In this document: positions 7,355 through 23,282 of the stretch, piece after piece
How positions within the stretch are numbered: the stretch's first letter is position 1
How the letters are laid out: each line of letters starts with the position of its first letter
Source: an uncultured bacterium
Lineage (GTDB): Bacteria; Patescibacteriota; Patescibacteriia; Patescibacteriales; UBA12465
Reading direction: 5' to 3'
Assembly (NCBI GenBank): GCA_942492765.1
Contig: OW818634.1
Coordinates: 859,159-895,742 of the forward strand
Length of the DNA: 36,584 nucleotides
Notes under the pieces: model-generated
Database searches by the model: none
What the model saw: the letters and a program-made list of their open reading frames with translations, nothing else
Told to the model about the DNA's origin: nothing
Made by a program: the position numbers and the translations under genes

Positions 7355-7384
7355 AAAACAACCCGTTTCCGGCGGGTTGTTTTT
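7355..7384 (+). terminator. Intrinsic terminator
   Basis: aaaacaacccg-tttccgg-cgggttgtttt. Confidence 0.85.
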
Positions 7385-7394
7385 GCGTAATCAG

Positions 7395-7422
7395 CGAAGA
7401 ATTTTCTTTTGTCGGCGTATTA
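7395..7422 (+). promoter_or_regulatory. Putative ECF sigma promoter, copy 3 (upstream of the lipoprotein-MacAB-like operon)
   Basis: cGAAGAAttttcttttgtCGGCGTATTA, with a spacer 1 nt shorter than copies 1 and 2. Confidence 0.72.
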
Positions 7423-7474: not shown

Positions 7475-8137
7475 ATGAAAAAAATTTTTCTCATCCCCGT
7501 TTCTTTTTTAGCCCTGCTTTTAGTACTGACTGGCTGTACTAAAGCTTCTCCGGCAACGGATAAGCAAGCTGAGCAGGATATTAATAAGCCTAGCCGAATG
7601 CGCCAGCCTGACTTCGGCCAGCCTGAGCGTACGCCTGATGTCCGAGGCATAGTCAAGAGCGTCGTCGGCAATGAAGTGACTATTCTAAAGATTGATCGTC
7701 AGCTGGGAAATCGCAATGCTAGCTCGACGACAGAGCAGGCTAATAATGGTTCGGCGACTAAGACTTCTGCCGTGAGTTTGACCGGGATTGCCGGCGGAGC
7801 CGGAGGAGGAGTTGGCGGTGGCCGGATGATGGGCGCCGGCGGACCAGGCGGTCCGGGAGAACAGACTTCTGAGACTAGGGCGCAGATGCTCGCGAAGCTT
7901 AAAGAAATGAGCACCGGCGAAGAGAAGATAATTATTCCAGTGGGTATCAGGATGCTGAAGATGGATACCAGTAATGATGCTAGAACCATGGTCGAAGCGA
8001 CGCTCGCTGATATCACGGCTGATAAGAATGTCGTCATCTGGATAAGCGCCCCGGCCGTGGCCGCTGAATCTGTCGCCGCTAGCAGCACTCCGGTCGCTAC
8101 TCCTAGCAAGATAGCGGAATTCGTTCTCATTAATTAA
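7475..8137 (+). CDS. Lipoprotein with a Gly-rich insert; possible DUF5666/OB-fold-like beta domain
   Basis: Lipobox VLTGC; GIVKSVVGNEVTI...IIIPVGIRM...ATLADI..DKNVVIW; GGAGGGVGGGRMMGAGGPGG. Confidence 0.6.
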   Translation: MKKIFLIPVSFLALLLVLTGCTKASPATDKQAEQDINKPSRMRQPDFGQPERTPDVRGIVKSVVGNEVTILKIDRQLGNRNASSTTEQANNGSATKTSAVSLTGIAGGAGGGVGGGRMMGAGGPGGPGEQTSETRAQMLAKLKEMSTGEEKIIIPVGIRMLKMDTSNDARTMVEATLADITADKNVVIWISAPAVAAESVAASSTPVATPSKIAEFVLIN

Positions 8138-8145
8138 CCAAATCT

Positions 8146-10008
8146 ATGGCTCAATCTATTCTCGAAGAAAGCAAGAAGGCTAAGCAAGGCATCTTTCATT
8201 TCGTCTTTAAGAAAAAATTTCTCATAATCTGCGGCGCTATCTTAATTATCGCCGGCGGATCGTATTATCTTTTCTTTTTTAATAAGCAGCAGTCAGCTGT
8301 CGCTGTCCAGCAGAAGCAGGTAACCGTCAAGAAAGCTGATTTGAAGATTTCCGTCAGTTCTAGCGGCAAGGTTGTCGCCAAAGACGGCGTAAAATTATCC
8401 TTTCCGGTCAGCGGCAATCTGGAGGTGAGTAATGTCTATGTCAAAGAAGGCGATAAGATCAAGAAAGGAGACAAGATCGCTTCCGTCAAGACAGAAACTT
8501 TGGAATTCGAATTGCGCAACGCTTATGCCAGCTACCAGTCAGCTTTAGCTAATTATAATGCTAAGGCCGATCCGGCCGCCAGTACGGTCAGCAAATCAAA
8601 AGCGTCCGTAGATCAAGCCCAAGTTTCCTTGGACCAGGCGAAGATTAGCTTGGAGCAGACTAAGATGACCACGGCGCAGAGCGTCGCCAATGCCGAGATG
8701 AGTGTCCAGACCGCGGCCAGTAACCTGAAGATGAATACTGATGTTAATGATAGCGAAATCGTGCGCAGCGCTTATTCCAGCCTCATCGCTTCCGTCAAAT
8801 CGATCAATATTTCCTTGCAGAAGATATTGCGTGATTCTGATAGCGTGCTCGGCGTGGATGATTCTATGATTAACGCTGATTTTAAATCCGTCTTAGGAGC
8901 CAGGGATTCGACTTCTTATGGCACGGCGAAAAATAGTTATAGTGCGGCTAAACAGGCGCGGACAGAATTGGATCTGCTTGCTAATTCCTTGTTTCTTTCA
9001 GATACGGCGGCTATAGACCGGGCGGCTGATAAGGCTGAAGACGTGCTAATAGTTTTCCAGAACCATTTATATGACATGCAGGCTCTCTTGGAAGCGACCA
9101 TCACTTCCGTCACTCTTTCGCAGTCTGAGCTGGATGGATTCAAATCGACAGTCAGCTCTGACCGGACGAACGTCAATTCCTCTATTTCCAGCCTGGATAA
9201 TTCCGTCCTTAGCGTCACTAACGCTAAGAGCAGCCTGGATCAATACGAATTAGCTTATGATAAGGCAGTCAATGATCTGGCCGTGGCCAAGAGCCAGGCC
9301 GAGCAGAACGTGAATAATTCGACTATTTCGGTCCATTCGCGCGAAATAGCGCTTGAGCAGGCCAAGAATGATTATAATATCTTAATTACGCCCTCTTCCG
9401 CGGACCTAGCTTCGGCTAGATCGCAGCTGACCTCGGCGGCCGTTTCCGTGGATCGAGCGAAATATAATGTCGAGCAAGCGACCCTAGTTTCTCCTATCGA
9501 CGGCGTAGTCGCGGCTCTTAATTATAAGACCGGAGACATCATCATGAGCGATGCGACCGATAAGACTATGGCTTCAATCATCAATAATGATACTCTGTTC
9601 ATCGAAGCGAACATCGAGGAGGCTGATATCAGCAAGCTCAAGGTCGGCGAGAAAGCGCAGGTGACTTTTGATGCTGTCGATGGAGTTGTCCTGACTGGCG
9701 AGGTGAGCTTCATCTCCCTGACTTCCGATACCAGCGCTAACGGCATCGTTACTTATCTTGTCCGCGTCATCCTAACTAATACCGCGGCCGCGCAGGTAAG
9801 GGAAGGCATGACCGCGGCGATCGAATTCGTCACGTCTGAAGCTCCCGGCGTCTTATCCATACCAGTCGCGGCTGTCCATAATATCGGTGGCAAGCCGGCG
9901 GTCGAGAAGCGAGACGGAACTGTCGCCAATGTTACGACCGGTTTCACCGACGGCAAGAATGTCGAAGTGATAAGCGGCCTGAGCGAAGGCGAGGTCATTG
10001 TTTACTAA
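8146..10008 (+). CDS. Efflux periplasmic adaptor subunit (MacA/YknX-like) with a greatly extended helical hairpin
   Basis: N-terminal TM anchor, lipoyl half V.V.EGDKIKKGD.IA, long coiled coil, second half L.SPIDGVV, beta-barrel I.EADI.KLKVG, membrane-proximal G..DGKNVEVISGL.EGE. Confidence 0.9.
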   Translation: MAQSILEESKKAKQGIFHFVFKKKFLIICGAILIIAGGSYYLFFFNKQQSAVAVQQKQVTVKKADLKISVSSSGKVVAKDGVKLSFPVSGNLEVSNVYVKEGDKIKKGDKIASVKTETLEFELRNAYASYQSALANYNAKADPAASTVSKSKASVDQAQVSLDQAKISLEQTKMTTAQSVANAEMSVQTAASNLKMNTDVNDSEIVRSAYSSLIASVKSINISLQKILRDSDSVLGVDDSMINADFKSVLGARDSTSYGTAKNSYSAAKQARTELDLLANSLFLSDTAAIDRAADKAEDVLIVFQNHLYDMQALLEATITSVTLSQSELDGFKSTVSSDRTNVNSSISSLDNSVLSVTNAKSSLDQYELAYDKAVNDLAVAKSQAEQNVNNSTISVHSREIALEQAKNDYNILITPSSADLASARSQLTSAAVSVDRAKYNVEQATLVSPIDGVVAALNYKTGDIIMSDATDKTMASIINNDTLFIEANIEEADISKLKVGEKAQVTFDAVDGVVLTGEVSFISLTSDTSANGIVTYLVRVILTNTAAAQVREGMTAAIEFVTSEAPGVLSIPVAAVHNIGGKPAVEKRDGTVANVTTGFTDGKNVEVISGLSEGEVIVY

Positions 10009-10026
10009 TAAGAGCAATCATCCGCT

Positions 10027-10737
10027 ATGTCTGGAAATATCGCTATAAAATTAGAGAATGCTCAGAAATCGTATTATCTGGGAAACGGCGAAGAGATCCC
10101 TGTCTTGAAGGGTATTAACCTGGAAATCAAGAAGGGTGAGTTCGTCGCGATCATGGGAGAATCCGGCGGCGGCAAGACTACGCTCTTGAATATCATCGGC
10201 TGCTTGCACCCGTTGACTAAAGGAAAATATTTTTTAGACGGAGAGAATATTGGAGAAGTGAAAGATGATTTTACGCTCGCTTTCATCCGCAATAAGAAGA
10301 TGGGCTTCGTCTTCCAGCAGTTCAATCTCTTCTCGCGTTTCTCCGCGCTGAAGAATGTCGCTCTGCCAGCTCTCTATGCCGGCATGCCGGCGGACGAACG
10401 CGAGAAAAAAGCGCAAGCCCTCCTTAAGTCAGTCGGCATGGGTGAGCGCGTCAATCATAAGCCGACGGAATTATCCGGCGGCCAGCAGCAGCGCGTCGCT
10501 ATCTGCCGCGCCTTGATAAACGATCCGGAAATAATCTTGGCGGACGAACCGACCGGCGCTCTGGATTCTAAATCCGGCTTAGAAGTCATGGATATTTTTA
10601 CGGAATTCAAGAAGCAGGGTCGGACCGTCGTTATGGTCACTCATACTGCCGAGGTCGCGAAGTATGCCGACCGGGTTATCTATTTGCGCGACGGTCAGGT
10701 ATTGAGTGATAATTATAAGCTGCATAGCGACTATTAA
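10027..10737 (+). CDS. ABC transporter ATP-binding protein (MacB/LolD family)
   Basis: Walker [38 protein letters not shown]. Confidence 0.95.
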
Positions 10738-10738
10738 T

Positions 10739-11935
10739 ATGAATCTGGAAATTATCAAAATGGCTTTTGAATCATTGCTGGCCAAGAAGACACGGACATT
10801 CTTGTCTATGCTCGGCATTATCATCGGCGTGGCTACGGTCATCGCCGTTTTTGCCGTCGGCCAAGGAGCACAGGAATCGGTTAATTCCCAGTTTCAGAAT
10901 TTGAGCGCCAATTCTATCCTGATCATGCCGAATCGCGGCCGCGGCTTCACCAGCAGTTCGAAATTGAAAACCGCCGACGCCCAATTATTATTAAGCGCCG
11001 ATCATATCGCTTCTGCTACCGGTGCTATCCAGGGAAACGCGACAGTCTCGTTCGGCTCGACCGATAAGAGTTATAGCGTCGTCGGCGTGGATCAGAACTT
11101 TATTTCTATTTCTAATCTCTCTATTGAGCAAGGACGCGGCATCGAGCAGGATGATATCGATAATAAGACGACAGTCGGCGTTATCGGCGCCACGGTCGTT
11201 TCCGATCTTTTTTCTGACGGTATCAGCCCCATCGGCCAAGAGATCACAGTCAGCGGTAAGAAGATCGAAATCGTGGGTGTTCTGAAAAAATTAGGTTCGC
11301 GCATCGGTATGATTTCTGTCGATTCGGCCGTTATCATTCCGAGCACGACCGCTGAGAAAAGCATCCTGGGCTCGAAAGGGCAAGTGATGATCACGACTGC
11401 GGTCGATAACGTCGATAATTCTGGTTTGGCGACTTCGAGCATTACCGCCTTGTTAAGAGAAGAGCATAAGCTGAAGGCTAGCCAGGAAAATGATTTTCAG
11501 ATCATGGATGCCGGCAGCATGGTCGCGGCCGCGCAAGCTTCGGCCAAGACCATGTCCGCTCTTCTGACCGCGATTGCCGCGATTACCTTATTGGTTTCCG
11601 GCATCGGCATCATGAATGTCATGTTCGTGACCGTAGCCGAAAGGACCAAAGAGATCGGCATCGCCAAGGCTATCGGCGGCAAGCGTTCCGATATCTTGAG
11701 TCAGTTCTTGTTGGAATCAGTTATCCTCTCGACGGTCGGCGGCGTGATTGGCATGATCATTGGCCAAGGGGCAATTCCGCTCATTTCCTATTTTGATATC
11801 ATCAGTATGGCCTCTTCTATAAATGGTCCGGTCATCGGCTTTACTTTTTCCGTCCTCGTCGGCGTCTTTTTTGGCTTTTATCCCGCCTTCCAGGCCAGCC
11901 GTCTCGATCCGGTTGACGCGCTGAGGAGCGAATAG
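10739..11935 (+). CDS. ABC transporter permease (MacB/FtsX family); start reassigned from 10706 to ATG 10739
   Basis: RTFLSMLGIIIGVA.V, large extracytoplasmic loop, GIGIMN.M.V.V.ERTKEIGI.KAIG, PA..A.RLDPVDALRSE. Confidence 0.93.
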   Translation: MNLEIIKMAFESLLAKKTRTFLSMLGIIIGVATVIAVFAVGQGAQESVNSQFQNLSANSILIMPNRGRGFTSSSKLKTADAQLLLSADHIASATGAIQGNATVSFGSTDKSYSVVGVDQNFISISNLSIEQGRGIEQDDIDNKTTVGVIGATVVSDLFSDGISPIGQEITVSGKKIEIVGVLKKLGSRIGMISVDSAVIIPSTTAEKSILGSKGQVMITTAVDNVDNSGLATSSITALLREEHKLKASQENDFQIMDAGSMVAAAQASAKTMSALLTAIAAITLLVSGIGIMNVMFVTVAERTKEIGIAKAIGGKRSDILSQFLLESVILSTVGGVIGMIIGQGAIPLISYFDIISMASSINGPVIGFTFSVLVGVFFGFYPAFQASRLDPVDALRSE

Positions 11936-11971
11936 GCCTGATCATGGCTCGAGCTTATTTTTATAGGGCAT

Positions 11972-11998
11972 AAAACTTCCTGCCTGGGAAGTTTTTTT
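11972..11998 (+). terminator. Intrinsic terminator
   Basis: aaaacttcc-tgcctg-ggaagtttt followed by a T tract. Confidence 0.8.
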
Positions 11999-12049
11999 AT
12001 TTTCGCGGGGATGATATCATATATCCATAATTAATATTAGGGGATCTAT

Positions 12050-12940
12050 ATGACGGACAATGTGATCATAGTTAATCCGGACAAGCTAGGGAAGATAAAA
12101 GAGAATATTAAGCAAGCCGGAGCGGAATCTGTCCATATATTATCTGATTTTGACCGTACCCTGACTTATCATTCTCAGGCCGGCCGCAAGAATTCCGCTC
12201 TGATTGCTGTCTTGCAGGACGGAGACTACTTGCCTCAGGAATATCGTAATCAGGTAGCCGCTTTATATCAGAAATATTATCCGATTGAATATGATCCCGA
12301 TATCCCTCTGCCGGAGAAAAAAGCGGCTATGGTCGAATGGTGGAATGAAGCTTTCGGATTATTGATAGCTTTCGGCCTAACCGAAGATATTGTCAGGCGC
12401 GCTGTAGCCGATAGCCGGATCAAGCTTAGGGACGGGGTAGAGGCTTGGCTGGATACGATCAAGGCTCTCGGCATTCCTCTGGTCATCTTTTCCGCATCGG
12501 CTTTTGGCAAGGAAGCGATCGATGTCTTCTTGGATAATCTTCAGCGCCATCTGCCTGATATTCATATCATGGCCAATTCTTTCATCTGGAACGAGGCCGG
12601 GAAGGCGGTCGGCATCCGTGAGCCAATCATCCATTCCTATAATAAAGACGAGACTTTGATTCAGGATTTTCCTTTCTTCCCGGAAATAAAAAATCGCCGC
12701 AATGTTATCTTGTTCGGCGATTCTTTAGGCGACGTCGGCATGGCCGAAGGCTTCGAGCACGATAATCTTCTAAAAATCGGCTTCCTGAATGAAGGAGCGG
12801 ATAATAATCTCCCTAGCTTCAAGCAGGCTTACGATGTCGTCATCATGGGCGACGCTTCTTTCGATTTCGTCAATTATTTATTTTCAGATCTTTTTCCGGC
12901 GCATCAGGAGAGTGTTGAGCACGACGCTGACCGAGGATAA
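12050..12940 (+). CDS. HAD-superfamily pyrimidine 5'-nucleotidase (UMPH-1/cN-III, NT5C3-like)
   Basis: SDFDRTLT (motif I), KxxxMVEWW, IPLVIFSA, ANSF, IIHSYNK, NVILFGDSLGDVGM, LKIGFLN, YDVVIMGD. Confidence 0.8.
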   Translation: MTDNVIIVNPDKLGKIKENIKQAGAESVHILSDFDRTLTYHSQAGRKNSALIAVLQDGDYLPQEYRNQVAALYQKYYPIEYDPDIPLPEKKAAMVEWWNEAFGLLIAFGLTEDIVRRAVADSRIKLRDGVEAWLDTIKALGIPLVIFSASAFGKEAIDVFLDNLQRHLPDIHIMANSFIWNEAGKAVGIREPIIHSYNKDETLIQDFPFFPEIKNRRNVILFGDSLGDVGMAEGFEHDNLLKIGFLNEGADNNLPSFKQAYDVVIMGDASFDFVNYLFSDLFPAHQESVEHDADRG

Positions 12941-15229
12941 GGACATAGCTCCGGCCGCGACGATCGGGCTGAGCAATAATCCATAGGCCGGATAAAAAGC
13001 GCCGCCAGCTAAGGGCAGGGCGACGATATTATAGAAGAAGGCCCAGAAGAGATTTTGCTTTATCTTCTTGATAGTGAGACGGGAGATCATGATTGCCTTG
13101 ATTATTTTGGAGAGATCGCCGTGAAGCACGGTGATGTCAGCCGACTCGATTGCGACGTCTGATCCGGTCGCCATCGCGATGCCGATATCAGAGGCAGTCA
13201 GCGCGACCGCATCGTTCACTCCATCTCCGACCATGGCGACCGCTAGGCCGCCTTTTTTTAATTCTTTAACCTTATCAGCTTTCTCTAGCGGAGAAATTTC
13301 GGCGATGACTTCATCGATGCCGGCCAGGTCGGCAATATGGCGGGCGGCTTCATAACGGTCGCCGCTCAGCATCACTGTCTTTAGGCCGAGGCGCTTCAAT
13401 TCTGAAATCGCGGCCGCGGCGCCTGGCTTGATGGTATCGGCGACAGCGATGATGCCTAAGATATTCTTTCCCTCGCTTAGGATCATAGAGGTCTGTCCTT
13501 CTTTTTCTAAGGCTGTAATCTTGTCCATCGGCAGGTCAGCGCCTAATGCCCGCAGCATCTTCACGTTGCCGAGATGATATTTCTGGCCGTCGATCAGGCC
13601 GCTGACGCCCTGGCCGCTGATAGCGGAGAATTCAGACGTCTCTAATAAAGGAATATTCTCTTGTCTAGCATGAGCTATGACTGCCTGCGCGAGCGGATGT
13701 TCGGAATTATTCTCTAGGGAAGCGGCGAGCGCGATAATCTTGGCAGGGGAGTTATTCTGATTAAGAGTGATGATTTCTGTGACTGCCGGCTGTCCGCTAG
13801 TGATAGTGCCGGTCTTATCAAGCGCGATGATTTTGACGCGGCCTAATCTTTCTAGGGCATCAGCATTCTTGATGAGCAGTCCGTTCTTGCTGGCTAGACC
13901 GAGGCCGACGATTATTCCGGTCGGCGTCGCGAGACCGAGGGCGCAAGGGCAGGCGATAGCAAGGACGCTGATGAAAGCGGTGAGACCTAAGCTGACTGAT
14001 TCGGCCCAGCCCAAGTAGCGCGGTCCGATTATTAGCCAGGCGCCCAAGGTCAGGACAGATAAAGCAAGGACTATCGGCACGAAGATGCCGGAAACTTCGT
14101 CAGCTAATTTTTGGATAGGCGCTTTGGAATTCTGGGCATCAGAGATCGCCTTGATTATATTAGCGATGACCGTGTCGGCTCCGACTTTATTTATTTTGAC
14201 TTTCAGGACGCCTTGCTTGTTCAAGGTCGAACCGATGACTTCATCGCCGTTACTCTTATCTACAGGCAAGGATTCTCCGGTGATGAGCGCTTCGTCTACG
14301 GCTGACAGGCCGCTGACGACGATGCCGTCAGCCGGAATCTTCATGCCCGGTTTGACGATGACGATATCCCCGACCCTTAATTCGCTGATCGGAGTTTCTT
14401 TCTCTTGCCCGTCGATTTCCACTAGCGCCGTTTTGCTCTGCAGGCTCATCAGCTTCTCGATCGTGTCATTAGTCCTGAGCTTGGCTTTGTTCTCTAGATA
14501 TTTTCCTAAGTAGACGAGCGTAATGACGACGATAGTGACATCGAAGAAATAATTTTCGCCTAATCCGAGCGCCTGTCTCAGAGCTGGGAAAAGATATATC
14601 AGGGTCGAATAGAAATACGCGGTGCCGGTGCCGATCCCGATGAGGGTATCCATATTAGCGCGGCCGTAGCGGAAGAAGCGGCCGGCGCCTTTTAAGAAAT
14701 CGCGGCCGAGCCAGAAGATGATGACGGTCGCAGTAATGAAGACGAGCGGCATGAATATCGTTCCCGGAATCAGTTCAGCTGGCGTAAATTTGAAATAACT
14801 GGCGGCGAGCGACCAGAAGACCGCTATCAGGATTAAGCTCATGAGCGGCAAGGCGATCTTTAATTTATTCTTTTGGCTCTCTAGCTCCGCCAGCTTAGCG
14901 GCTCTCATCGTCCGCAGATCGCCTCCGGCCGCCAGGCCGTGGTCCATATGATCATGATCCATGTTCATATGATCCATGTCCGCTTGGCCCGCGGGTTTTG
15001 CAGAAGATAAGCTATCTGGAAATTTTAAGCCATAGCCTAATTTTTCCAGATTCTTATTGGCCGAAGCCGGAGAGAAAGACTCGGCCTCGAATTCCAAGTT
15101 AGCCTCTTCGGTCAACGGGTTGACTTGGATGTTTTTTACTCCAGGCTCTTTCTTGAGCTCTTTCTCAACGATCTTGGCGCAGGAGGCGCAATGCAGGCCG
15201 CTGACGCCGATGCGAATTTTGTTTTCCAT
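12884..15229 (-). CDS. copA: Copper-translocating P1B-type ATPase
   Basis: HMA GLHCASC, His/Met linker, ANMDTL, TGES, ACPCALGLATP, DKTGT, SEHPLA, GDGVND, YN..ALP, MSLSSVSV. Confidence 0.95.
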   Translation of the reverse strand: MENKIRIGVSGLHCASCAKIVEKELKKEPGVKNIQVNPLTEEANLEFEAESFSPASANKNLEKLGYGLKFPDSLSSAKPAGQADMDHMNMDHDHMDHGLAAGGDLRTMRAAKLAELESQKNKLKIALPLMSLILIAVFWSLAASYFKFTPAELIPGTIFMPLVFITATVIIFWLGRDFLKGAGRFFRYGRANMDTLIGIGTGTAYFYSTLIYLFPALRQALGLGENYFFDVTIVVITLVYLGKYLENKAKLRTNDTIEKLMSLQSKTALVEIDGQEKETPISELRVGDIVIVKPGMKIPADGIVVSGLSAVDEALITGESLPVDKSNGDEVIGSTLNKQGVLKVKINKVGADTVIANIIKAISDAQNSKAPIQKLADEVSGIFVPIVLALSVLTLGAWLIIGPRYLGWAESVSLGLTAFISVLAIACPCALGLATPTGIIVGLGLASKNGLLIKNADALERLGRVKIIALDKTGTITSGQPAVTEIITLNQNNSPAKIIALAASLENNSEHPLAQAVIAHARQENIPLLETSEFSAISGQGVSGLIDGQKYHLGNVKMLRALGADLPMDKITALEKEGQTSMILSEGKNILGIIAVADTIKPGAAAAISELKRLGLKTVMLSGDRYEAARHIADLAGIDEVIAEISPLEKADKVKELKKGGLAVAMVGDGVNDAVALTASDIGIAMATGSDVAIESADITVLHGDLSKIIKAIMISRLTIKKIKQNLFWAFFYNIVALPLAGGAFYPAYGLLLSPIVAAGAMSLSSVSVVLNTLLMRRKKI

Positions 15230-15257
15230 ATGTTTGGCTTATTATTTTAAGCTTTAT

Positions 15258-16598
15258 TTATTTTTCAACGACCTGGAAGCTGCCGGTGTACATGCCCATA
15301 GAGCAGGAGAAGGGGATAGATCCGGTTTTAGTGGGCGTGAATTCAATGATATTCTCGCCGCGCTCCAATTGTTTTTGGATCCTGAGAGACGGGACGATCA
15401 AGGCGCTGGCGCAGGAATATGGCGCTTCGGCCGTAATTATCCAGCGGACCGGCTTGTCTTTGATGATCGTGAACTTATTCGGTAAATAGCCGCGGTTATT
15501 TTCCGTCATCCTGATGATTTGGATATCGTTATTTTCCCGATCAGTATTAGCGGCGGAATTATTTTTTTCTGCTTGTTCTTTTTTGACGCCTGTTTCTGCT
15601 GTGCCGGAAATCCTGAATAGCTTATAGCCGTTATTGAGATTGAATAGGCCGAAGATGACGATGATAATGCCAGCGGCTTTGAAGAAAGAAACATTTTTTC
15701 GGCCGCTTAATAACGAAGCTAGGCCGCCTATGCCCAGGAGTCCGGGCGCGGTGCCGAGCGCGAATAACCCCATGACGAGGCCGCCTTTCAGGAAACTTCC
15801 AGAATTCAGAGCATATAATTGCATCGCCTGCGTGAAGCCGCAGGGCATGAAGAAGGTTAGGGCGCCGAGGGCGAGCGGGTTATCTATCTTTAAGATTCTG
15901 CCCCAGCTCTTAGGCAAGGAAAAATCTAGGCGATTGATGAAAGGGAATATATCTAGCAGCTTTAATCCGAGAATCAGGATTATCAGGCCGACAAAGATGG
16001 TGATCAGACTGTTGGCGAGGGCAGAGAGCTTGAAGACGCCGCCGATGACGCCCAATATTCCTCCGAGCGCGAAGAAGCCGAGAACACGGCCGGCGTTGAA
16101 TAATAGATGGGGCCGGAATTTCTGGCGCGCGCTAGCTTCAGGATGGCTTTTGGCATAATTAGCCGCCAGGCCCATGACTAAGCCGCCGACCAGCGCTAGA
16201 CAGGTTGAAGCGCCGGCAATCAAGCCGACGATGACAGCCAGAGGCCAAGAAAAATCTCGGTTAAGCCAGCTGCTCGGATCTAGATTTATCTGGTTGAAGA
16301 CCCAAAAGATGATCAGGACGGAACTGACGAGCGTCACGCCTTGGCTGAAGCTGGCGCCGCGCTTGCGAGTATCATCAGGAAGCTTCTTTTCGCCCAATCC
16401 ATAGCCGGCCTCTTTCAAGCGATGCTCAATCTCTTTCAGGCTCGGCTCTTCGCCTTCATAAGATATTTCCGCTTCTTCCGCGCTGAGATCGACAGAGACA
16501 TCTTTGACGCCCCTGATTTCCTTAAGAGCGTCTTCAGTCAGGATGACGCAGGCCTTGCAGTGCAGCCCGGAGACTGGCACGCTTATCTTCTTGAGCAT
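15258..16598 (-). CDS. HMA domain + DsbD/CcdA(TauE-like) transmembrane domain + C-terminal cupredoxin-like domain fusion
   Basis: GLHCKAC; TM Cys pair in ASTCLALVGG and FMPCGFTQ; C-terminal YSCA and FSCSMGMYTG. Confidence 0.85.
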   Translation of the reverse strand: MLKKISVPVSGLHCKACVILTEDALKEIRGVKDVSVDLSAEEAEISYEGEEPSLKEIEHRLKEAGYGLGEKKLPDDTRKRGASFSQGVTLVSSVLIIFWVFNQINLDPSSWLNRDFSWPLAVIVGLIAGASTCLALVGGLVMGLAANYAKSHPEASARQKFRPHLLFNAGRVLGFFALGGILGVIGGVFKLSALANSLITIFVGLIILILGLKLLDIFPFINRLDFSLPKSWGRILKIDNPLALGALTFFMPCGFTQAMQLYALNSGSFLKGGLVMGLFALGTAPGLLGIGGLASLLSGRKNVSFFKAAGIIIVIFGLFNLNNGYKLFRISGTAETGVKKEQAEKNNSAANTDRENNDIQIIRMTENNRGYLPNKFTIIKDKPVRWIITAEAPYSCASALIVPSLRIQKQLERGENIIEFTPTKTGSIPFSCSMGMYTGSFQVVEK

Positions 16599-16624
16599 AT
16601 GTTTATGATTATTTGTTAAGCCGA

Positions 16625-16897
16625 TTATTTATTCGCTAGCTTGTTGACTTTCAAGATCTCGTCGACCATGCGCTGTTTCAGCTTCTCGTTCTTAGAGGCC
16701 ATGGCGTTCTTGAAGCAGCTATTGAGATGGCCGTCTAAAAGCATCTGGTGCGCAGACTTGAGCAGGCCGATGACGGCCAGATTCTGCTGCATGATATCGA
16801 TGCAATAATCGCCTTTCTCAGTCATAGTAATCAGCTTCTCGGTTAAGCTCTTCGCCTTCTTGAAATTTATTAGAATCTTCTTTCTGTCTTGAGACAT
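16625..16897 (-). CDS. csoR: CsoR/RcnR family metal-sensing transcriptional repressor
   Basis: YCIDIMQQ..AV..LL......L.GHLNSC (Cys-His-Cys ligand set); first gene of the copA operon. Confidence 0.88.
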   Translation of the reverse strand: MSQDRKKILINFKKAKSLTEKLITMTEKGDYCIDIMQQNLAVIGLLKSAHQMLLDGHLNSCFKNAMASKNEKLKQRMVDEILKVNKLANK

Positions 16898-16930
16898 ATT
16901 TTTTTTGAGGGTTAGATGATTTATTTCTTT

Positions 16931-16959
16931 AGATACCTATACCTGGGGTGTAGGTATCT
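16931..16959. promoter_or_regulatory. Putative CsoR operator
   Basis: Inverted repeat AGATACCTA-tacctggggtg-TAGGTATCT around a G tract. It lies immediately downstream of the csoR -10 box. Confidence 0.75.
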
Positions 16960-16961
16960 TA

Positions 16962-16990
16962 ATCATAGCTTTTTATCTTTTCAGGGTCAA
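16962..16990 (-). promoter_or_regulatory. Sigma70-type promoter of csoR-copA operon
   Basis: Minus strand TTGACC-N17-TATGAT. Confidence 0.7.
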
Positions 16991-17019
16991 GCCTGGCTGC
17001 CGCCGCGGCGGAAAAGGAT

Positions 17020-17048
17020 TTGCTTTTCGGCTATTTTCTTGGTATAAT
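17020..17048 (+). promoter_or_regulatory. Sigma70-type promoter of ZIP-RND operon
   Basis: TTGCTT-N17-TATAAT. Confidence 0.7.
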
Positions 17049-17113
17049 GAGGATTGCTTGATTTATGCGAGCATTGTTTGATTTATTTAATTTTGGCTCG
17101 TAATCTGCCTATT

Positions 17114-17863
17114 ATGACATTATATTTATATATCTTCGGCAGCGTTCTGCTGGTTTCTTTCCTGTCTCTCTTCGGAGTCTTTTTTTTGTCGTTCTCGCCG
17201 CGTTTCATGGAGAAGCTGACCTTATTCCTCGTCAGCCTTTCAGCCGGAACCTTGCTGGGCGACAGCTTCTTGCATCTTTTGCCCGAAGCGGCGGCTGATA
17301 ATGGCGCCAGCTTACGGATGTGGCTCTGGCTGATAATCGGATTAGTCTCTTTCTTCGTGCTCGAGAAGATAGTTCATTGGCGGCATTGCCATATCCAGAC
17401 CTGTCCGACGCATCCGCATCACCTAGGCATCATGAATCTTGTCGGCGATTGCCTGCATAATTTTTTTGACGGCGTCATCATCGCCGGCTCGTTCTTGGTC
17501 AGCCTGCCTCTGGGCCTGACTACCCTGATAGCGGTCATCGCTCATGAGATACCGCAGGAGATCGGTGATTTCGGAGTTTTGCTCTATGCGGGCTATTCGC
17601 GTCGCCGCGCCTTGTTCCTTAATTTCGTCACGGCGCTCACTGCCGTTTTTGGAGCGGTCATCGCGATAGTTCTTGGCGCGCGCATCAATAATTTTTCTGA
17701 TCTGATAATCCCGTTCACGGCCGGCGGCTTCATCTATATCGCGACCGCCGATTTGATTCCGGAATTGAAGAAAGAAACGGCCGCCCGTAAGTCCTTATAT
17801 CAATTGATCAGCATCATCGTCGGTATCGGCATCATGCTGGCCTTGAAAGTCATCTTCGAATAA
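17114..17863 (+). CDS. ZIP (ZupT-like) family divalent metal transporter; start reassigned from 17054 to ATG 17114
   Basis: LLGDSFLHLLPEA, His-rich loop HWRHCHIQTCPTHPHH, GDCLHNFFDG, HEIPQEIGDF. Confidence 0.92.
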   Translation: MTLYLYIFGSVLLVSFLSLFGVFFLSFSPRFMEKLTLFLVSLSAGTLLGDSFLHLLPEAAADNGASLRMWLWLIIGLVSFFVLEKIVHWRHCHIQTCPTHPHHLGIMNLVGDCLHNFFDGVIIAGSFLVSLPLGLTTLIAVIAHEIPQEIGDFGVLLYAGYSRRRALFLNFVTALTAVFGAVIAIVLGARINNFSDLIIPFTAGGFIYIATADLIPELKKETAARKSLYQLISIIVGIGIMLALKVIFE

Positions 17864-17881
17864 ATAATAAGAATCTTAAAT

Positions 17882-19789
17882 ATGAAAAAAAAGCAAATAT
17901 CAGTGATCGCTCTATTAATCTCCTTATCCCTCGCTCTTAGCGCTTGCGGCTCTAAGGTAGAAGCGCCGATATCAGAACCGACGCCAGTTGCCGTCAAAGG
18001 CCAGACCGTCGGCAACAGCCTGAGCGTCAGGCAGGGATTGTCTTATCCGGGAATGGTCGTAGCTGATAGCGAGGCCACGATAGTCGCCAAGGCTAGCGGC
18101 AATTTGACTGGAGCCAAATTCAAGGTCGGCGATACCGTCAGCCTCGGCCAGGAGCTTGCGAAGATTGACGATGTTAATTCTCCTGCTTTCAATGCTTCTA
18201 ATTTTAATACTAACCAGATCAAGCAGGCGAAGAATGCGGCGGCGAGCGCTGAAGCTGCCTATAGCTTAGCCAAAGACAGCTACAATAGCTTATTAGTTTC
18301 TTCGGTCAAGGATTTGCGCAGCGCCGAGATCGCCCGTGATCAGGCGGCTAAAGGCCAGAGCAATCTTGATATTACGACGGAAGAAAGTTTGAAGAGCGCG
18401 GAGCTCGCTTATGAAACGGCTAAGATAGCGACCGAGCAAGCTAGTTCGACTTTAGTTAATAGAGAAAAATTAGCCGTTCAGAGCGCTAAAGACACTCTGA
18501 CAAACGCTGATCTGACAGCTAGTTCAGTCGTCTCGACCGCCGGCGCCATTATCACTAATATCAATAACATCACGGCGTTCGATATCAACAATACCGTCTC
18601 CATCGATTATCGTTCCAATCTCGGCGCCCTTGATTCCAGCACTTACGATGTCGCTAAACAGGCTTATCAAGCCGCGAAGGACGCTTACGCCGCCTATCAG
18701 AAGAAGAAGCCGGCTAGCGTTTCCGAAGATGTCGATAACGTCATTATCGTCGCCGACGCAGTCAAGTCCTTGGTCGATGTTACCAAAGGCTTATTGGATA
18801 AGAGCATCTCTTCTTCCGCTTTGCCCGCTAGTTCCGTTTCCGGAGTTTCTTTGTCCGGATTGCAGTCGGCTGTTTCCGGTTATCAATCCCAGATCAACGC
18901 CGCCGCCGCTCAGATAAATGGGATGAAGCAGGCGCTAGTGAACGTCAATTTGAATAATACGACTTTGCTTGATAGCTTGCGCCAAGCCTATCAACTCGCC
19001 TCCCAGCAAGAAGCGATTGCCAAGCAGAATTTATCTAATTTGAAATCTGGCAATACTAGCCAGCAGAATCAGGCCGGGTATGTCGCTAACTTGGCGCAGA
19101 ATCAGTATGATAACGCGAAAGTGAAGATCGAATCTCAGATCAACGCCGCTAAGACTCAAGTCGAGACGGCAGAATTGCAATATAATAACGCGCTAGTCGC
19201 TCTGCAGAGCCTTTATGACGCCCACTCCGTTATCGCTCCGATAAACGGCACAGTCACTAAAGTCTTTGTCGCTGATGGCCAAGCAGTCGCTCAAGGCCAA
19301 GCGGTCGCGACTATTTCTCAAACGCAGAATATCAAGGTCCAATTCTTTATCGAAGCTGATAACTTGAAAGATATCATTTTGGGATTGCCAGTAGCAGTCG
19401 TCGATGATAATAATGTCTCACATCCAGGGCTCGTGGCCGCAGTTTCGCCGCAAGCGGATCTTATCACTCGCCGGTTCTTGGTCGAGGTGAAATTAGAAGA
19501 TTCGACCGGATTATTCCTGGGTACGGTCGTGACGGTTAAGCTTGAATTGGTCAAGACGGCGACGACGGCCGGCTCTATCATCCTGCCTTTAGCCGCTATC
19601 ACTGTCGGACAGAACGGAAATTATATCTTTATTGCGGAAGACGGGAGGGCGAAGAAGGCTAGCGTCGATATCCAAGAAGTCTTGGGAGAGTCGGCGCGCA
19701 TCAAAGTCGACCTGCCAGCGGAGACGATGATAATTACGGAAGGCAACCGTCTTTTAGAAGAAGGACAGAGCATAGTTTTCAATCAATAA
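17882..19789 (+). CDS. RND efflux periplasmic adaptor lipoprotein with an extended helical hairpin
   Basis: Lipobox LSAC, F.VGD.V..GQ.LA.ID, long Ala/Gln/Ser coiled coil, IAPINGTV..V.V..GQ.V..GQ, TRRF.VEV, IILP..AI. Confidence 0.9.
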   Translation: MKKKQISVIALLISLSLALSACGSKVEAPISEPTPVAVKGQTVGNSLSVRQGLSYPGMVVADSEATIVAKASGNLTGAKFKVGDTVSLGQELAKIDDVNSPAFNASNFNTNQIKQAKNAAASAEAAYSLAKDSYNSLLVSSVKDLRSAEIARDQAAKGQSNLDITTEESLKSAELAYETAKIATEQASSTLVNREKLAVQSAKDTLTNADLTASSVVSTAGAIITNINNITAFDINNTVSIDYRSNLGALDSSTYDVAKQAYQAAKDAYAAYQKKKPASVSEDVDNVIIVADAVKSLVDVTKGLLDKSISSSALPASSVSGVSLSGLQSAVSGYQSQINAAAAQINGMKQALVNVNLNNTTLLDSLRQAYQLASQQEAIAKQNLSNLKSGNTSQQNQAGYVANLAQNQYDNAKVKIESQINAAKTQVETAELQYNNALVALQSLYDAHSVIAPINGTVTKVFVADGQAVAQGQAVATISQTQNIKVQFFIEADNLKDIILGLPVAVVDDNNVSHPGLVAAVSPQADLITRRFLVEVKLEDSTGLFLGTVVTVKLELVKTATTAGSIILPLAAITVGQNGNYIFIAEDGRAKKASVDIQEVLGESARIKVDLPAETMIITEGNRLLEEGQSIVFNQ

Positions 19790-19811: not shown

Positions 19812-22800
19812 ATGGATATAAATATCAATCATAAGAATGATGGACTGAAAATGGGCGTCGCCGTCGATATTGATGAGCGCGCCGCCGCGGAATATTCCGG
19901 AGTCAAGACTTCGGATCATCTTTATCTGGAGAAATTGGAATTCAATCCGGAGCTGCGCAAGAGCTGGTTGAATTTTTTCATCGTCAATTTCCGCGTCGTC
20001 ATCCTGCTCATCATGCTCCTGACTGGGCTGGGCATCTATGCTTTCAGCGTCTTGCCGCGCGAATCGAATCCAGAAGTGAAAATTCCGATCGCTGTCGTAA
20101 TGACGATGTATCCTGGAGCTTCTCCGGCTGATATTGAGGAGCTAGTCTCTAAGAAGATCGAGACGGGAATCGCTGGAGTGAAGAATGTCGATAAGATAAC
20201 TTCTCAGTCATCCAACTCCATCTCCATGATCACGGTCGAATTCGATGCCAAGGCCGATCTCAATGATTCTATCAGAAGCCTGCGCGATGCGGTCTCGAAT
20301 GCCAAGTCGAAATTGCCGGCCGATGCCAATGATCCGATCGTGAAAGAGATATCCATGGATGATTCGCCGATAATGGTTATGTCCTTATCCGGGCCTTATG
20401 ACGGCTTTGTCCTGCGCGAAGCTGGCGATACGATCAAGGATGAACTGGAAAAGATTCCGGGCGTACGCGAAGTGAGTATTTCCGGCGGCGACGAGCGGGA
20501 ATTCACTGTCGAATATGATCCGCAGAAATTGGCTTTATATAACCTCTCCGCTATCCAGGCTAACGCCAAGATCCAGGGCGCTAACCTAGCTATTCCGGCC
20601 GGAACCTTTGAGGGCCAGGAATATTCTTATCCGGTGCGCGCTGACGGCCGCTTCTTTACCGCGTCTGTTCTGGCTGATACCCCGATCATCCATACTGATT
20701 CCGGCGCCATCATCTATCTTAAGGATATCGCGACCGTCAAAGACGCTTCGATCAAGAAGACCGTTTTCTCTCGCTTGTCGACCGGCGGCCAGAATGCTTC
20801 CAGCAACGTGACTCTGCAGATCATCAAGAAGACCGGCGGCAATGTCATCGAGACAGCCGGCAAAGTCAGGGAGACTTTTGATGCTGAGCTTAAGAAGATG
20901 CCGAGCGGCTTGCATTATGACGTGACTGTCGATATGTCCGAGGAAATCAACACCAGCTTCAATCAATTGACGCATGATTTCTTATTGACGATTATTCTCG
21001 TCTTCTTGATCCTGTTCCTGATTGTCGGCTTCAAGGAGGCGCTCGTCGCCGGCTTAGCCGTGCCGCTAGTATTTTTCGCGACCTTCGGCGTTATGCTCTG
21101 GACCGGCATCAGCCTTAATTTCTTATCCCTGTTCTCGCTTATCCTCGCGCTCGGCTTATTAGTCGATGACGCGATCGTGGTCGTTTCCGCGACCAAGCAA
21201 TATTTGCGCACCGGAAAATTTACGCCGGAAGAGGCGGTCTTGTTAGTCCTGAATGATTTCAAGGTCGTGCTGTTAACGACGACCTTGACGACGGTCTGGG
21301 CTTTCTTGCCGCTCCTCATGTCCACCGGCATCATGGGAGAATTCATAAAATCAATTCCGATCACGGTCTCGGTCACTCTGATTTCTTCGCTTGTCATCGC
21401 CCTCATCATCAATCATCCGCTCGCGGCCGTCCTTGAGCGCATCCGCCTGACGCGGAAATTATTCTCTTTCTTTTTTGCCGGCATCCTGATCCTAGCCATA
21501 GTCTTAGCGGTTTCAGCTGGCTTAGTCGGAATATTATTAGCCTTGATCCTTTTAGGCGTAGACGTCGCGTTGGCTTCCTGGTACATGAAGAAAGGGAAGG
21601 CCATGCTTATCGTCAATAGCGAATTGGTAGCGCGCGAATGGGCGAGCGATGAGCTTATCAAGCAGAAGCTGCGCGAACAAGGCAGCCATGATAATGATAA
21701 TTTTGGCAACCGCTTGATGCACGGAATCATCCGTTTCGACGTCTTTCTCCCTATCTATGAAAAATATCTGCGCCGCCTGATAACGACTAAGAAAGCGCGC
21801 TTCAAGACTTTGGCTTTTGTCGCCGGGCTGTTTATAGTCGCTGTCGCTTTGCCGGTGACCGGAATAGTTCAGAGCGAATTTTTTCCAGCCTCGGATTCGA
21901 CCCAGATAAATATTAGCCTAGAAGGTCCGATCGGACTCAATTTGGAAGAGACTGATAAGATCGCCCGCCGCGTCGAAGAGCGTTTATATAAATATCCGGA
22001 AATCGAGAACTTCACGACTATCGTCGGCCAGGGCGGATCTTCCGATAGCCTAGTCGCCGGAGGCAATTCTTCCCACTTAGCTTCTTTCACTTTAAAACTG
22101 ACGCCGACCGATGATCGCGATATCAAAGCCTATGAATTAGCTGATAAGATCAATGCTGATATCGCTGATATCAAGGAAGCGGTCATCAAGGCCGCTGCTC
22201 CTTCCGGCGGACCGCCTTCCGGCGCCGCCTTCCAGGCGAATATCGCTGGCGACGATCTCCAGGAGCTTGATAGAGTAGCTAAAGAATTGGAAATTCCTTT
22301 GAAGTCCCTGCCTGATGTCTCGAAGACTAATATTTCTCTGAAGGACTCCCCGGCTGATTATACTTTTACTCTTTCGCCGGCCCGCTTAGAGCTTTATGAC
22401 CTTAGCGCCGCTTATGTCGGCTCGGCTTTGCGCTTGGCTATCACCGGCACCGAAGTGACGACCGTCATCACTGGCGGCAAGGAGATCAAGGTGCTAGCCC
22501 GCTTCGCGCCTGATCGGATTCCTGACTTGGAAGCGATTCAGAACTTACAGATCTTAAATGCCAAGAATCAGCCCGTTTTCTTGAAAGACGTGGCGACTAT
22601 CGAGCTGAAGCCGTCAGTCGCTACTATCACTCGCATCAATCAGCGCCGAACCGTTCTCTTGACCGCGACCCTGAAAGGCGGCGCTAATTCGACGCTGGTC
22701 GTTTCTGAATTCCAGAAGAAGATAAAGGATTATAAGTTTCCGTCCGGCTATGAGATCACTTACGGCGGCGAGAGCGAACAGAATACCGAATCGGTCATGT

Positions 22801-23282
22801 CAATCCTGCGCGCGATGGTCGTCGCCTTCTTGCTTATCATTTCGACGCTCATCATCCAGTTCAATTCCTTCAAGAAAGCTGGCATCGTGCTAGTGACTAT
22901 CCCGCTCGCCCTCATCGGCGTTTTCTTCGGCCTAGCCATTTCTCGCTTGAACCTGTCTTTCCCGGGTCTTATCGGCATCCTGGCTCTCTGCGGCATCGTC
23001 GTCAAGAATGCGATTATCCTGATGGATAAGATAAATCTCAATCTTAATAGCGGCATCGAGTTCAACGACGCGATCGTCGACGCTGGCAAGTCGCGCTTAG
23101 AAGCGATTTTCATCACTTCGATCTGCACGATTCTCGGTATCTTGCCCATTACTCTTTCTAATGAGATGTGGCGCGCTCTCGGCGGCGCCGTCATCTTCGG
23201 CCTGATGCTCTCATCTTTCCTGACGCTTTTCATCGTTCCGGTCCTATTCAAGTCCTTCATCAAGCCGAAGAGGCATTTCTAG
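19812..23282 (+). CDS. RND efflux transporter permease (AcrB/AcrD/AcrF-like family)
   Basis: LPRE..PEV.IP, YPGASP.DIE..V...IE, GLLVDDAIVV (TM4 Asp pair), GIVVKNAII (TM10 Lys), RLEAIFITS, LTLFIVPV. Confidence 0.95.
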   Translation: MDININHKNDGLKMGVAVDIDERAAAEYSGVKTSDHLYLEKLEFNPELRKSWLNFFIVNFRVVILLIMLLTGLGIYAFSVLPRESNPEVKIPIAVVMTMYPGASPADIEELVSKKIETGIAGVKNVDKITSQSSNSISMITVEFDAKADLNDSIRSLRDAVSNAKSKLPADANDPIVKEISMDDSPIMVMSLSGPYDGFVLREAGDTIKDELEKIPGVREVSISGGDEREFTVEYDPQKLALYNLSAIQANAKIQGANLAIPAGTFEGQEYSYPVRADGRFFTASVLADTPIIHTDSGAIIYLKDIATVKDASIKKTVFSRLSTGGQNASSNVTLQIIKKTGGNVIETAGKVRETFDAELKKMPSGLHYDVTVDMSEEINTSFNQLTHDFLLTIILVFLILFLIVGFKEALVAGLAVPLVFFATFGVMLWTGISLNFLSLFSLILALGLLVDDAIVVVSATKQYLRTGKFTPEEAVLLVLNDFKVVLLTTTLTTVWAFLPLLMSTGIMGEFIKSIPITVSVTLISSLVIALIINHPLAAVLERIRLTRKLFSFFFAGILILAIVLAVSAGLVGILLALILLGVDVALASWYMKKGKAMLIVNSELVAREWASDELIKQKLREQGSHDNDNFGNRLMHGIIRFDVFLPIYEKYLRRLITTKKARFKTLAFVAGLFIVAVALPVTGIVQSEFFPASDSTQINISLEGPIGLNLEETDKIARRVEERLYKYPEIENFTTIVGQGGSSDSLVAGGNSSHLASFTLKLTPTDDRDIKAYELADKINADIADIKEAVIKAAAPSGGPPSGAAFQANIAGDDLQELDRVAKELEIPLKSLPDVSKTNISLKDSPADYTFTLSPARLELYDLSAAYVGSALRLAITGTEVTTVITGGKEIKVLARFAPDRIPDLEAIQNLQILNAKNQPVFLKDVATIELKPSVATITRINQRRTVLLTATLKGGANSTLVVSEFQKKIKDYKFPSGYEITYGGESEQNTESVMSILRAMVVAFLLIISTLIIQFNSFKKAGIVLVTIPLALIGVFFGLAISRLNLSFPGLIGILALCGIVVKNAIILMDKINLNLNSGIEFNDAIVDAGKSRLEAIFITSICTILGILPITLSNEMWRALGGAVIFGLMLSSFLTLFIVPVLFKSFIKPKRHF

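Follow-up and report, generated by a model that had tools for sequence, protein, structure and literature searches.

Adaptors of ABC and RND pumps from Patescibacteria share an extended helical hairpin with a predicted distal four-helix bundle

The stretch of DNA analyzed here, referred to as the window, comprises 36,584 nucleotides from an uncultured member of the Patescibacteria, or Candidate Phyla Radiation (CPR; GenBank assembly GCA_942492765.1, contig OW818634.1, positions 859,159 to 895,742), and encodes two pumps, each with its own periplasmic adaptor (membrane-fusion protein). Adaptor A is the partner of a MacB-type ATP-binding cassette (ABC) pump and adaptor B that of a resistance-nodulation-division (RND) pump. 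The two adaptors are newly described as proteins whose hairpin is extended threefold and bears a conserved distal module, predicted to be a four-helix bundle, that is found on both ABC and RND pumps of CPR. A literature search returned nothing on long CPR adaptors. The adaptors and the parts of their helical domains are the following:

8146..10008, + strand: adaptor A, 620 aa, periplasmic adaptor/membrane-fusion protein, partner of the MacB-type ABC pump (Pfam HlyD_D23, HlyD_3, Biotin_lipoyl_2)
17882..19789, + strand: adaptor B, 635-aa lipoprotein adaptor (Cys22), partner of the RND pump (Pfam HlyD_3, HlyD_D23)
8494..9477, + strand: alpha-helical domain of A, residues 117-444 (AlphaFold2, covariation)
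8659..9417, + strand: residues 172-424 of A, about 253 aa absent from a short 343-aa ortholog (BLASTP against L065:2608-3639)
8755..9216, + strand: predicted distal four-helix bundle of A, with helices H1 204-235, H2 255-280, H3 287-316 and H4 326-357 (AlphaFold2, Foldseek, covariation)
8908..9093, + strand: predicted H2-H3 hairpin of A that folds back, residues 255-316, its turn at 281-286 being variable (conservation, covariation)
18449..18997, + strand: bundle-equivalent module of B, residues 190-372, which includes the motif at 18608-18679 (hhalign to A 197-365)

Adaptors A and B are homologous membrane-fusion proteins

Both adaptors were recognized by the curated adaptor model TIGR01730 (RND_mfp, cut-off 94.9 bits), with 125.4 bits for A and 125.0 bits for B, and in each of them the model matched two stretches flanking an unmatched middle. 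In adaptor A, an N-terminal membrane anchor (residues 24-45) precedes Biotin_lipoyl_2 at 82-114 and HlyD_3/HlyD_D23 at 405-557, and the alignment with MacA reaches the C terminus. The Pfam matches, the MacA alignment and AlphaFold2 give the architecture expected of an adaptor, a lipoyl domain split by an alpha-hairpin and followed by the beta-barrel and membrane-proximal domains. Two narrower models matched adaptor A below their cut-offs, the MacA equivalog NF008606 (84.1 bits, cut-off 342) and, weakly over residues 256-564, the HlyD type I model TIGR01843 (69.6 bits, cut-off 208.65). The residues E231, Y276 and T293 of the MacA ring (PMC8277102) correspond in the alignment to E492, Y537 (or, one residue further, L538) and T556 of A, all of which are invariant in family A. 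In family B, E491, F532 and T548 were found by eye at comparable positions.

The best solved relative of the family-A profile was MacA (E = 7.5e-23), MexJ reaching just 2e-3, and those of the family-B profile were the TriA-TriB fusion 6vej_P (E = 5.3e-28) and MexJ (E = 1.8e-15). Since these relatives differ, the cores of A and B are of different subtypes. A total of 486 homologs was found for adaptor A, the best 120 of which are mostly 620-624 aa long, and 159 for adaptor B, the best 120 being mostly 631-660 aa long with an invariant Cys22. In both families, the length of the adaptor is held down to about 46-56 % identity among the homologs listed.

The original prediction, made by a reader of the sequence alone, had reported a matching motif in two unusually long adaptors of 620 and 635 aa. 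The ORFs at 8146-10008 and 17882-19789 have these lengths, and the motifs were found where they had been placed: positions 8881-8952 translate to FKSVLGARDSTSYGTAKNSYSAAK (A residues 246-269) and positions 18608-18679 to YRSNLGALDSSTYDVAKQAYQAAK (B residues 243-266), and BLASTP aligned the two motifs to one another. A second similar segment had been described downstream, of the form LL..(T/S)I.S..L...; it does align, but only with a 5-residue gap, LPxSSxxGxSLSGLQ in B facing LSQxxLDGFKS in A.

The similarity remained significant after composition correction. Composition-adjusted BLASTP of A against B gave E = 1e-10 over 450 columns, and the comparison of profile with profile gave a probability of 99.7 % (E = 2.7e-25, 509 columns). 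With the insert only, the family-A profile scored 33 of the 33 family-B inserts at 18.5-50.4 bits, whereas the maximum for 990 residue shuffles was 11.2 bits, and the reverse test yielded 14.0-43.8 bits against a shuffle maximum of 7.0. Region by region, the bundle had the highest scores between A and B (32 and 31 bits in the two directions), compared with 8 and 22 bits for the 176-aa C-terminal core and 7 and 12 bits for the N-terminal lipoyl part.

A shared Ala/Ser/Gln-rich coiled-coil composition might give such a likeness with no homology behind it, and the region is indeed biased; weak secondary hits of the profile do fall on other helical stretches within these proteins. This explanation is refuted by the shuffle tests, which rule out chance or compositional likeness (14-50 bits, with 11 as the most that about 1900 residue shuffles reached). 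It is also contradicted by the matching succession of loops and helices, which is located alike in A and B, and by the invariant non-helical D, LG and Y common to them. Moreover, the profile of the insert finds at least 672 clusters (representatives at 50 % identity) at E ≤ 1e-3, and 309 at E ≤ 1e-10; among the best 150 of the 672, most have 580-690 aa, and the module sits around residues 170-370.

As judged from sequence comparison, the adaptors are homologous end to end and the pumps are unrelated. The idea of adaptors from two unrelated pumps was therefore right about the pumps, while the adaptors themselves are relatives throughout. By the same comparisons, their cores are of subtypes suited to their own pump, MacA-like in A and TriAB/MexJ-like in B, and the distal module is common to both. 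The module could have been exchanged between adaptors, or an old duplicate could have kept it while the core diverged; either origin is compatible with these data. A recent whole-gene duplication as the sole origin is unlikely, given cores at 8-22 bits against 31-32 bits for the bundle and the different best solved relatives of these cores.

The insertion lies in the alpha-hairpin and is predicted to fold back at its tip

The ortholog at locus L065, an adaptor of 343 aa within the same operon gene order, was aligned by BLASTP with just residues 21-171 and 425-612 of A. Since this short protein matches only the flanks, about 253 residues are inserted within the alpha-hairpin of a MacA/YknX-type adaptor. 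The extra length is thus a true insertion, it is shared by homology with B, and it is the best-conserved region between the two adaptors.

AlphaFold2 was applied to adaptor A with an alignment of 31 sequences, and the predicted local distance difference test (pLDDT) score was above 90 over most of residues 150-410. Helices were predicted at 117-141, 145-196, 204-235, 255-280, 287-316, 326-414 and 418-444, with loops at 236-254, 281-286 and 317-325. The arms of the main hairpin run up from 117 to 235 and down from 326 to 444, about 119 residues each, which would correspond to an arm of about 175 Å. Residues 197-365 alone (169 residues) were predicted with a pLDDT of 91.9 and a predicted template modeling (pTM) score of 0.87. 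The best matches of the bundle in the PDB, according to Foldseek, were single-chain four-helix bundles, and these were weak (E ≥ 0.012, TM up to 0.46).

The topology was also analyzed by mean-field covariation in 370 long adaptors (effective number of sequences, Neff, 252). Among the top 100 pairs, 29 fell in the antiparallel register i+j = 552-576, where 5 were expected and where shifted bands contained 1-4. Within the top 300 pairs, H3 and H4 were linked in antiparallel by 5 pairs (1.0 expected) and H1 and H3 in parallel by 7 (1.1 expected), including the second and fourth strongest pairs overall. H2-H3 accounted for 8 pairs (1.0 expected) and H1-H4 for 9 (1.3 expected), and no H2-H4 signal was detected. 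The strongest covarying pair overall was 264-310. The antiparallel H3-H4 contacts together with the parallel H1-H3 contacts indicate that H2-H3 folds back. Therefore, the favored model is a main hairpin of about 175 Å with a fold-back hairpin at its tip, forming a predicted four-helix bundle. A single two-helix hairpin of about 240 Å with conserved loops in the middle of its shaft was also considered, and was ruled out by the covariation contacts and by the four-helix-bundle fold matches.

With this fold-back topology the conserved motif comes to lie in a distal rim. The motif had been described as a mid-hairpin one, which is correct for the sequence; in space, according to AlphaFold2 and covariation, it would be at the distal tip. 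In addition, the homolog P0112 carries matching 7-residue insertions in both arms, in paired register (alignment A1, columns 195-201 and 387-393). These are a natural lengthening by one heptad, the classic mode in which hairpins change length. As for adaptor B, hhalign matched its residues 190-372 to residues 197-365 of A column for column.

The loops of the predicted rim are conserved

The two loops that would face outward at the end of the bundle are located as follows:

8851..8907, + strand: distal rim loop 1 of A, residues 236-254, GVDDSMINADFKSVLGARD (translation; it overlaps the first 9 residues, 246-254, of the motif at 8881-8952)
9094..9120, + strand: distal rim loop 2 of A, residues 317-325, with Q326, L329 and D330 next to it (AlphaFold2, alignment)

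In adaptor B, rim loop 2 is longer (LPASSVSGVSLSGLQ, 18821-18865). The mean column identity was 0.70-0.71 in the rim loops and 0.66-0.75 in the main arms, and fell to 0.49-0.57 in the fold-back hairpin, the most variable helical part. The invariant residues of the rim in family A are D232, G236, D238, N243, L250, G251, Q326, L329 and D330, and those of the module in family B are N228, D234, Y243, L247, G248, Y262, L314, P315, L324 and Q328. Invariance across both families was observed for D238, L250, G251, Y265 and L329 (numbering of A).

Comparison with known adaptors

MacA from the MacAB-TolC pump of Escherichia coli (PDB 5NIK, 3FPP) resembles adaptor A in its domain order, in its MacB-type partner and in the ring residues, which align to invariant positions. 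It differs in having about 42 rather than about 119 residues per arm, an RLS tip and TolC docking. TriA/TriB and MexJ of Pseudomonas aeruginosa (PDB 6VEJ) are the closest solved relatives of the core of B and also have RND partners. By contrast with B, their hairpins are of normal length and they depend on an outer-membrane factor; the match to B is limited to its N- and C-terminal parts.

Spr0693 of Streptococcus pneumoniae and YknX of Bacillus share with adaptor A a MacB-type partner pump in a monoderm; their pumps have no outer-membrane factor, and none was found near that of A. A hexameric "nanotube" has been proposed for them, carrying the substrate across the inner wall zone (PMC5768738, PMC8277102). 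Unlike A, they have short alpha-barrels (56 Å traced in Spr0693), with neither a distal four-helix bundle nor a conserved rim motif, and the sequence similarity between Spr0693 and A is low (E = 3.7e-5). An ordinary two-helix hairpin of about 56-70 Å does not fit adaptor A, but does fit the short L065 ortholog.

Extended helical domains like those of A and B also occur in EmrA and HlyD/LipC. These helical domains measure about 115-127 Å, and HlyD-type adaptors have a third helix. These proteins are nevertheless shorter than A and B, they depend on TolC, they have an RLS/RLT tip (PMC3391258), and they carry no fold-back hairpin with these rim loops. Hairpin extensions have been noted to resemble the helices of the TolC barrel (PMC4446572). 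In CusB, the helical hairpin is folded back on itself and gives a four-helix bundle (PMC4446572). That fold-back shortens the whole hairpin, whereas here an extra hairpin would be added to the end of a very long one; CusB is, moreover, the adaptor of a metal pump and works with CusC. The outer-membrane factors themselves, TolC included, would be comparable to the insert of A in function alone, with no similarity in sequence or fold.

No outer-membrane factor was found beside the pumps

The original prediction had stated that neither operon contains an outer-membrane factor, and this was borne out. None was present among the window ORFs of at least 400 aa (Pfam and further comparisons), and none among the conserved neighbors within 10 kb at 69 related loci, which were scanned with one genome per species. 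TolC-dependent adaptors carry at the tip of the hairpin the "RLS" motif, RxxxLxxxxxx(S/T) (PMC3391258). This motif was present in at most 1 of 31 family-A sequences and at most 1 of 33 family-B sequences at any aligned position. The premise that CPR bacteria lack a classical outer membrane also agrees with the literature, in which Patescibacteria are described as monoderm (PMC11665869, PMC7906910) and CPR-sized cells as having a periodic surface layer and no outer membrane (PMC11665869, PMC7906910, 10.1101/2021.05.31.446380).

It had further been proposed that the insert replaces TolC. No Pfam family was found over A residues 125-400, and the insert is not a homolog of TolC, because it has no similarity to it in sequence or fold and has no beta-barrel. 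A replacement in function would nonetheless fit the absence of the RLS motif, the absence of a neighboring outer-membrane factor and the arm length, as well as the conserved ring residues of A and an adaptor length that hardly varies among hundreds of sequences. The MacA hairpin, from the alignment, has about 42 residues per arm, or about 63 Å. The alpha-barrel of TolC is about 100 Å long. The predicted arm of about 175 Å would thus be close to the MacA hairpin plus the TolC alpha-barrel. The model of Spr0693 implies a base of about 98 Å (PMC5768738), and such a base together with the arm would place the rim about 27 nm above the membrane.

Distribution in CPR genomes

A match to the bundle was obtained in 62 of the 69 loci, from Falkowbacteria, Parcubacteria/Paceibacterota and Nealsonbacteria, with remoter members in Gracilibacteria, Peribacteria and Altimarinota; some of the record titles are uninformative or doubtful. 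Several loci (L010, L013, L014, L020, L022, L025 and others) carry a CPR-type operon at 57-65 % identity in records of third-party metagenome-assembled genomes titled "uncultured Gammaproteobacteria", and these records are probably mislabelled. The named relatives of adaptor A among the best 120 of 486 all belong to the Patescibacteria group or to Candidatus Falkowbacteria. As to the taxonomic restriction that had been suggested as a check on the insert, restriction to CPR is well supported for families A and B, whose named members are all CPR. It is weakly supported for the wider cluster set, since the sole organism name retrieved there was Patescibacteria.

Further long adaptors matched the bundle profile: L019:14984-16774 (596 aa, 99.9 bits), L043:19964-21697 on the - strand (577 aa, 37.7 bits) and L003:14706-16619 (637 aa, 25.9 bits). 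Near those of L019 and L043 lies an RND gene just about 34 % identical to that of the window. Because long adaptors with the bundle occur near a different RND gene, a third adaptor type with the same module is likely.

Gene neighborhood and regulation of the pump-A operon

In the window, the pump-A operon runs from a lipoprotein gene through adaptor A and the ABC ATPase to the MacB-type permease, and adaptor B lies directly 5' of its own pump, a 1156-aa RND permease. These genes and the signals ahead of the operon are:

~7361-7385: terminator, hairpin and T-run, just 5' of the promoter-like motif (sequence read)
7396..7422, + strand: promoter-like motif of the extracytoplasmic function (ECF) sigma type, GAAGAA-N14-CGTATTA, ahead of the adaptor-A operon (sequence read)
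7475..8137, + strand: 220-aa lipoprotein containing a Gly-rich linker, encoded first in the ABC pump operon (lipobox LTGC)
10027..10737, + strand: MacB-type ABC ATPase (Pfam ABC_tran, E = 1.3e-32; NCBIfam MacB N-terminal half, E = 1.6e-77)
10706..11935, + strand: MacB-type permease, MacB_PCD and FtsX (Pfam E = 1.5e-36 and 5.7e-19)
19812..23282, + strand: RND permease, 1156 aa, multidrug (HAE-1-like) type (Pfam ACR_tran, E = 4.4e-183)

The arrangement of the pump-A genes is kept in 66-68 of the 69 loci, with the MacB-type permease adjoining the adaptor in 67. The GTG start of this permease, as listed, gives an overlap of 32 nt with the end of the ATPase gene (10706-10737), and in many related loci the tblastn alignment spans about 398-401 of the 409 permease residues; the real start may be about 10 codons further downstream. 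The best NCBIfam match of the RND permease was RND_permease_2 (E = 1.6e-156), under the cut-off of that family.

The promoter-like motif ahead of the pump-A operon is kept in about 14 of 17 related loci. Upstream of it are a SigW-like ECF sigma gene (4991-5575), a gene for a 281-aa membrane protein (5580-6425), which is a possible anti-sigma factor, and one for a 160-aa secreted protein (6601-7083), and this set is kept upstream in 31-37 of the 69 loci. The conserved motif and the SigW-like sigma gene suggest that the pump-A operon belongs to an envelope-stress regulon. In Bacillus, the yknWXYZ operon is regulated by SigW, and the YknX pump would thus resemble pump A in this link as well. Just before the terminator, at 7117-7343, there is also a small lipoprotein-like ORF of about 75 aa with a lipobox (LTGC) and Pro/Gly-rich PPEGG repeats.

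Pfam, NCBIfam and the PDB contained nothing that matched the 220-aa lipoprotein at 7475-8137. It is encoded directly 5' of the adaptor in 51 of the 69 loci and is 51 % identical to its counterpart in a complete Falkowbacteria genome. In L065, a 173-aa ORF with an N-terminal stretch similar by eye stands at the same position and precedes the short adaptor. The lipoprotein may be a fourth component of the pump, and a novel one.

Genes for metal handling surround both pumps and lie between them (2142-2588, 12884-15229 on the - strand, 15258-16598 on the - strand and 17054-17863). They encode a plastocyanin-like protein, an HMA-domain P-type ATPase, a DsbD_2 protein fused to HMA and cupredoxin domains, and a ZIP transporter; the ZIP gene is directly 5' of adaptor B, and ZIP genes are also near the pump in several related loci. 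The ORF at 12050-12940 strongly matched the UMPH-1 pyrimidine 5'-nucleotidases (PF05822, E = 4e-63), a family known mainly from eukaryotes, and may bear on nucleotide salvage in this CPR genome. Two adjacent stand-alone response-regulator receiver proteins of 129 aa (2894-3283) and 134 aa (3283-3687) lack an output domain. Finally, two BspA-type giants with leucine-rich repeats, at 26528-31198 (1556 aa) and 31337-33406 (689 aa), each have a PG_binding_1 domain at one end, the C-terminal one, and the larger one also has aBig_2 domains. They are probably surface proteins anchored to peptidoglycan, which is consistent with a wall-bearing monoderm envelope.

Proposed mechanism and alternative explanations

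In the mechanism proposed here, both adaptors keep the membrane-proximal, beta-barrel and lipoyl domains, the standard ones that encircle the transporter. The alpha-hairpin would have lengthened, from about 40 residues in each arm to about 119, with an added hairpin at the far end folding back to give the four-helix bundle, and the two conserved loops of the bundle would make up the distal rim. Six adaptors would assemble as MacA, YknX and Spr0693 do, into a long tube of alpha-helices standing on the pump. Through this tube, substrates would leave the membrane surface, cross the wall zone and reach the outermost layer with no TolC-like factor, and the conserved rim would gate the mouth of the tube or anchor it in the outer wall or the surface layer. 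A self-contained hexameric exit duct of this kind is considered the most likely mechanism, unproven and favored by a modest degree of confidence. Directly in its support are the homology of the adaptors, the insertion and its position, the topology of the bundle from prediction and covariation, the lack of the RLS motif and of a neighboring outer-membrane factor, and the named members, which are CPR only. From there we infer the hexamer, its open lumen, how many angstroms it measures and what the rim does. That an adaptor tube could work in monoderms with no outer-membrane factor is not a new idea, as it was already proposed for Spr0693 and YknX (PMC5768738, PMC8277102).

Several points weigh against this mechanism. 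The 50 best PDB matches that Foldseek gave for the insert model included no outer-membrane factor, the topology of B would follow from homology to A and from the pooled alignment, and the four-helix bundle could be a closure or plug of the tube, or have another role. The main rival to the exit duct is that the pumps are still three-part, the rim docking an outer partner that would play the role of TolC, be it a surface-layer or wall-bound protein or the pump-A lipoprotein. The loops of the rim are better conserved than the fold-back hairpin and carry the invariants common to both families, a pattern that recalls the RLS docking tip (PMC3391258); the pump-A lipoprotein is itself conserved, and a periodic surface layer is present on CPR-sized cells (PMC7906910). 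However, the pump-B operon has no such lipoprotein gene, the similar small ORF beside the short L065 adaptor means that a lipoprotein at this site does not depend on the long hairpin, no fold relative of the pump-A lipoprotein is known, and no other conserved channel-like neighbor was found at the 69 loci. On balance, a docking rim is seen as rather unlikely.

It is also conceivable that the arm is not a conduit and that the substrate is released at the membrane surface. The arm would then serve as a rigid spacer or scaffold, as a sensor or as a chaperone cage, keeping pump and wall in register, linking the pump with envelope stress or retaining peptide substrates. For the hairpin of monoderm adaptors, whose role is open, a "foldase cage" has been put forward (PMC4446572), and the pump-A operon is apparently behind an envelope-stress promoter of the ECF (SigW-like) type. 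Yet all solved MacA-type adaptors, those of Gram-positive bacteria included, are hexameric tubes (PMC8277102, PMC5768738), and the ring residues are conserved here. Moreover, strict length and the presence of the same module on two types of pump are better explained by a common geometry spanning the envelope than by a substrate-specific cage, and a non-conduit role is regarded as quite unlikely. Highly improbable is a tube that reaches a host cell, as had been proposed in the original prediction, delivering or taking up molecules where episymbiont and host touch. Many CPR bacteria do live as episymbionts in tight contact with other cells (PMC7906910), and a structure of about 27 nm, if correctly estimated, would protrude past a thin envelope. 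Nothing in the data points to such a conduit, however: the partners belong to ordinary exporter families (MacB type and multidrug RND type), the neighborhood gives no hint of effectors or host-targeting functions, and the structure would be about as long as an ordinary tripartite pump, not longer.

Returning to the exit duct, a broader and more tentative possibility is that of a portable "exit-duct cassette", a helical extension of about 250 aa with a possibly gated, Asp/Gly-rich rim. Placed on at least two adaptor subtypes, and likely on a third, in several CPR classes, such a cassette might turn two-component pumps into complete envelope-spanning machines, which would take over the work of adaptor and TolC together in cells that lack an outer membrane.

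Significance

Little is known about the movement of molecules across the unusual envelope of CPR bacteria, and the function of the adaptor hairpin in bacteria with no outer membrane is an open question (PMC4446572). The idea of the adaptor as an exit duct is directly testable with soluble recombinant protein, because a large, length-conserved CPR set is available, the predicted arm is about as long as a hairpin plus the TolC barrel, and the same module is found on ABC and RND pumps. Should the tube idea fail, the conserved rim would still be an interaction site in a poorly understood cell wall. Additionally, the module is an example of a structural unit common to different adaptor subtypes, and it could serve as a molecular ruler of the thickness of the CPR envelope.

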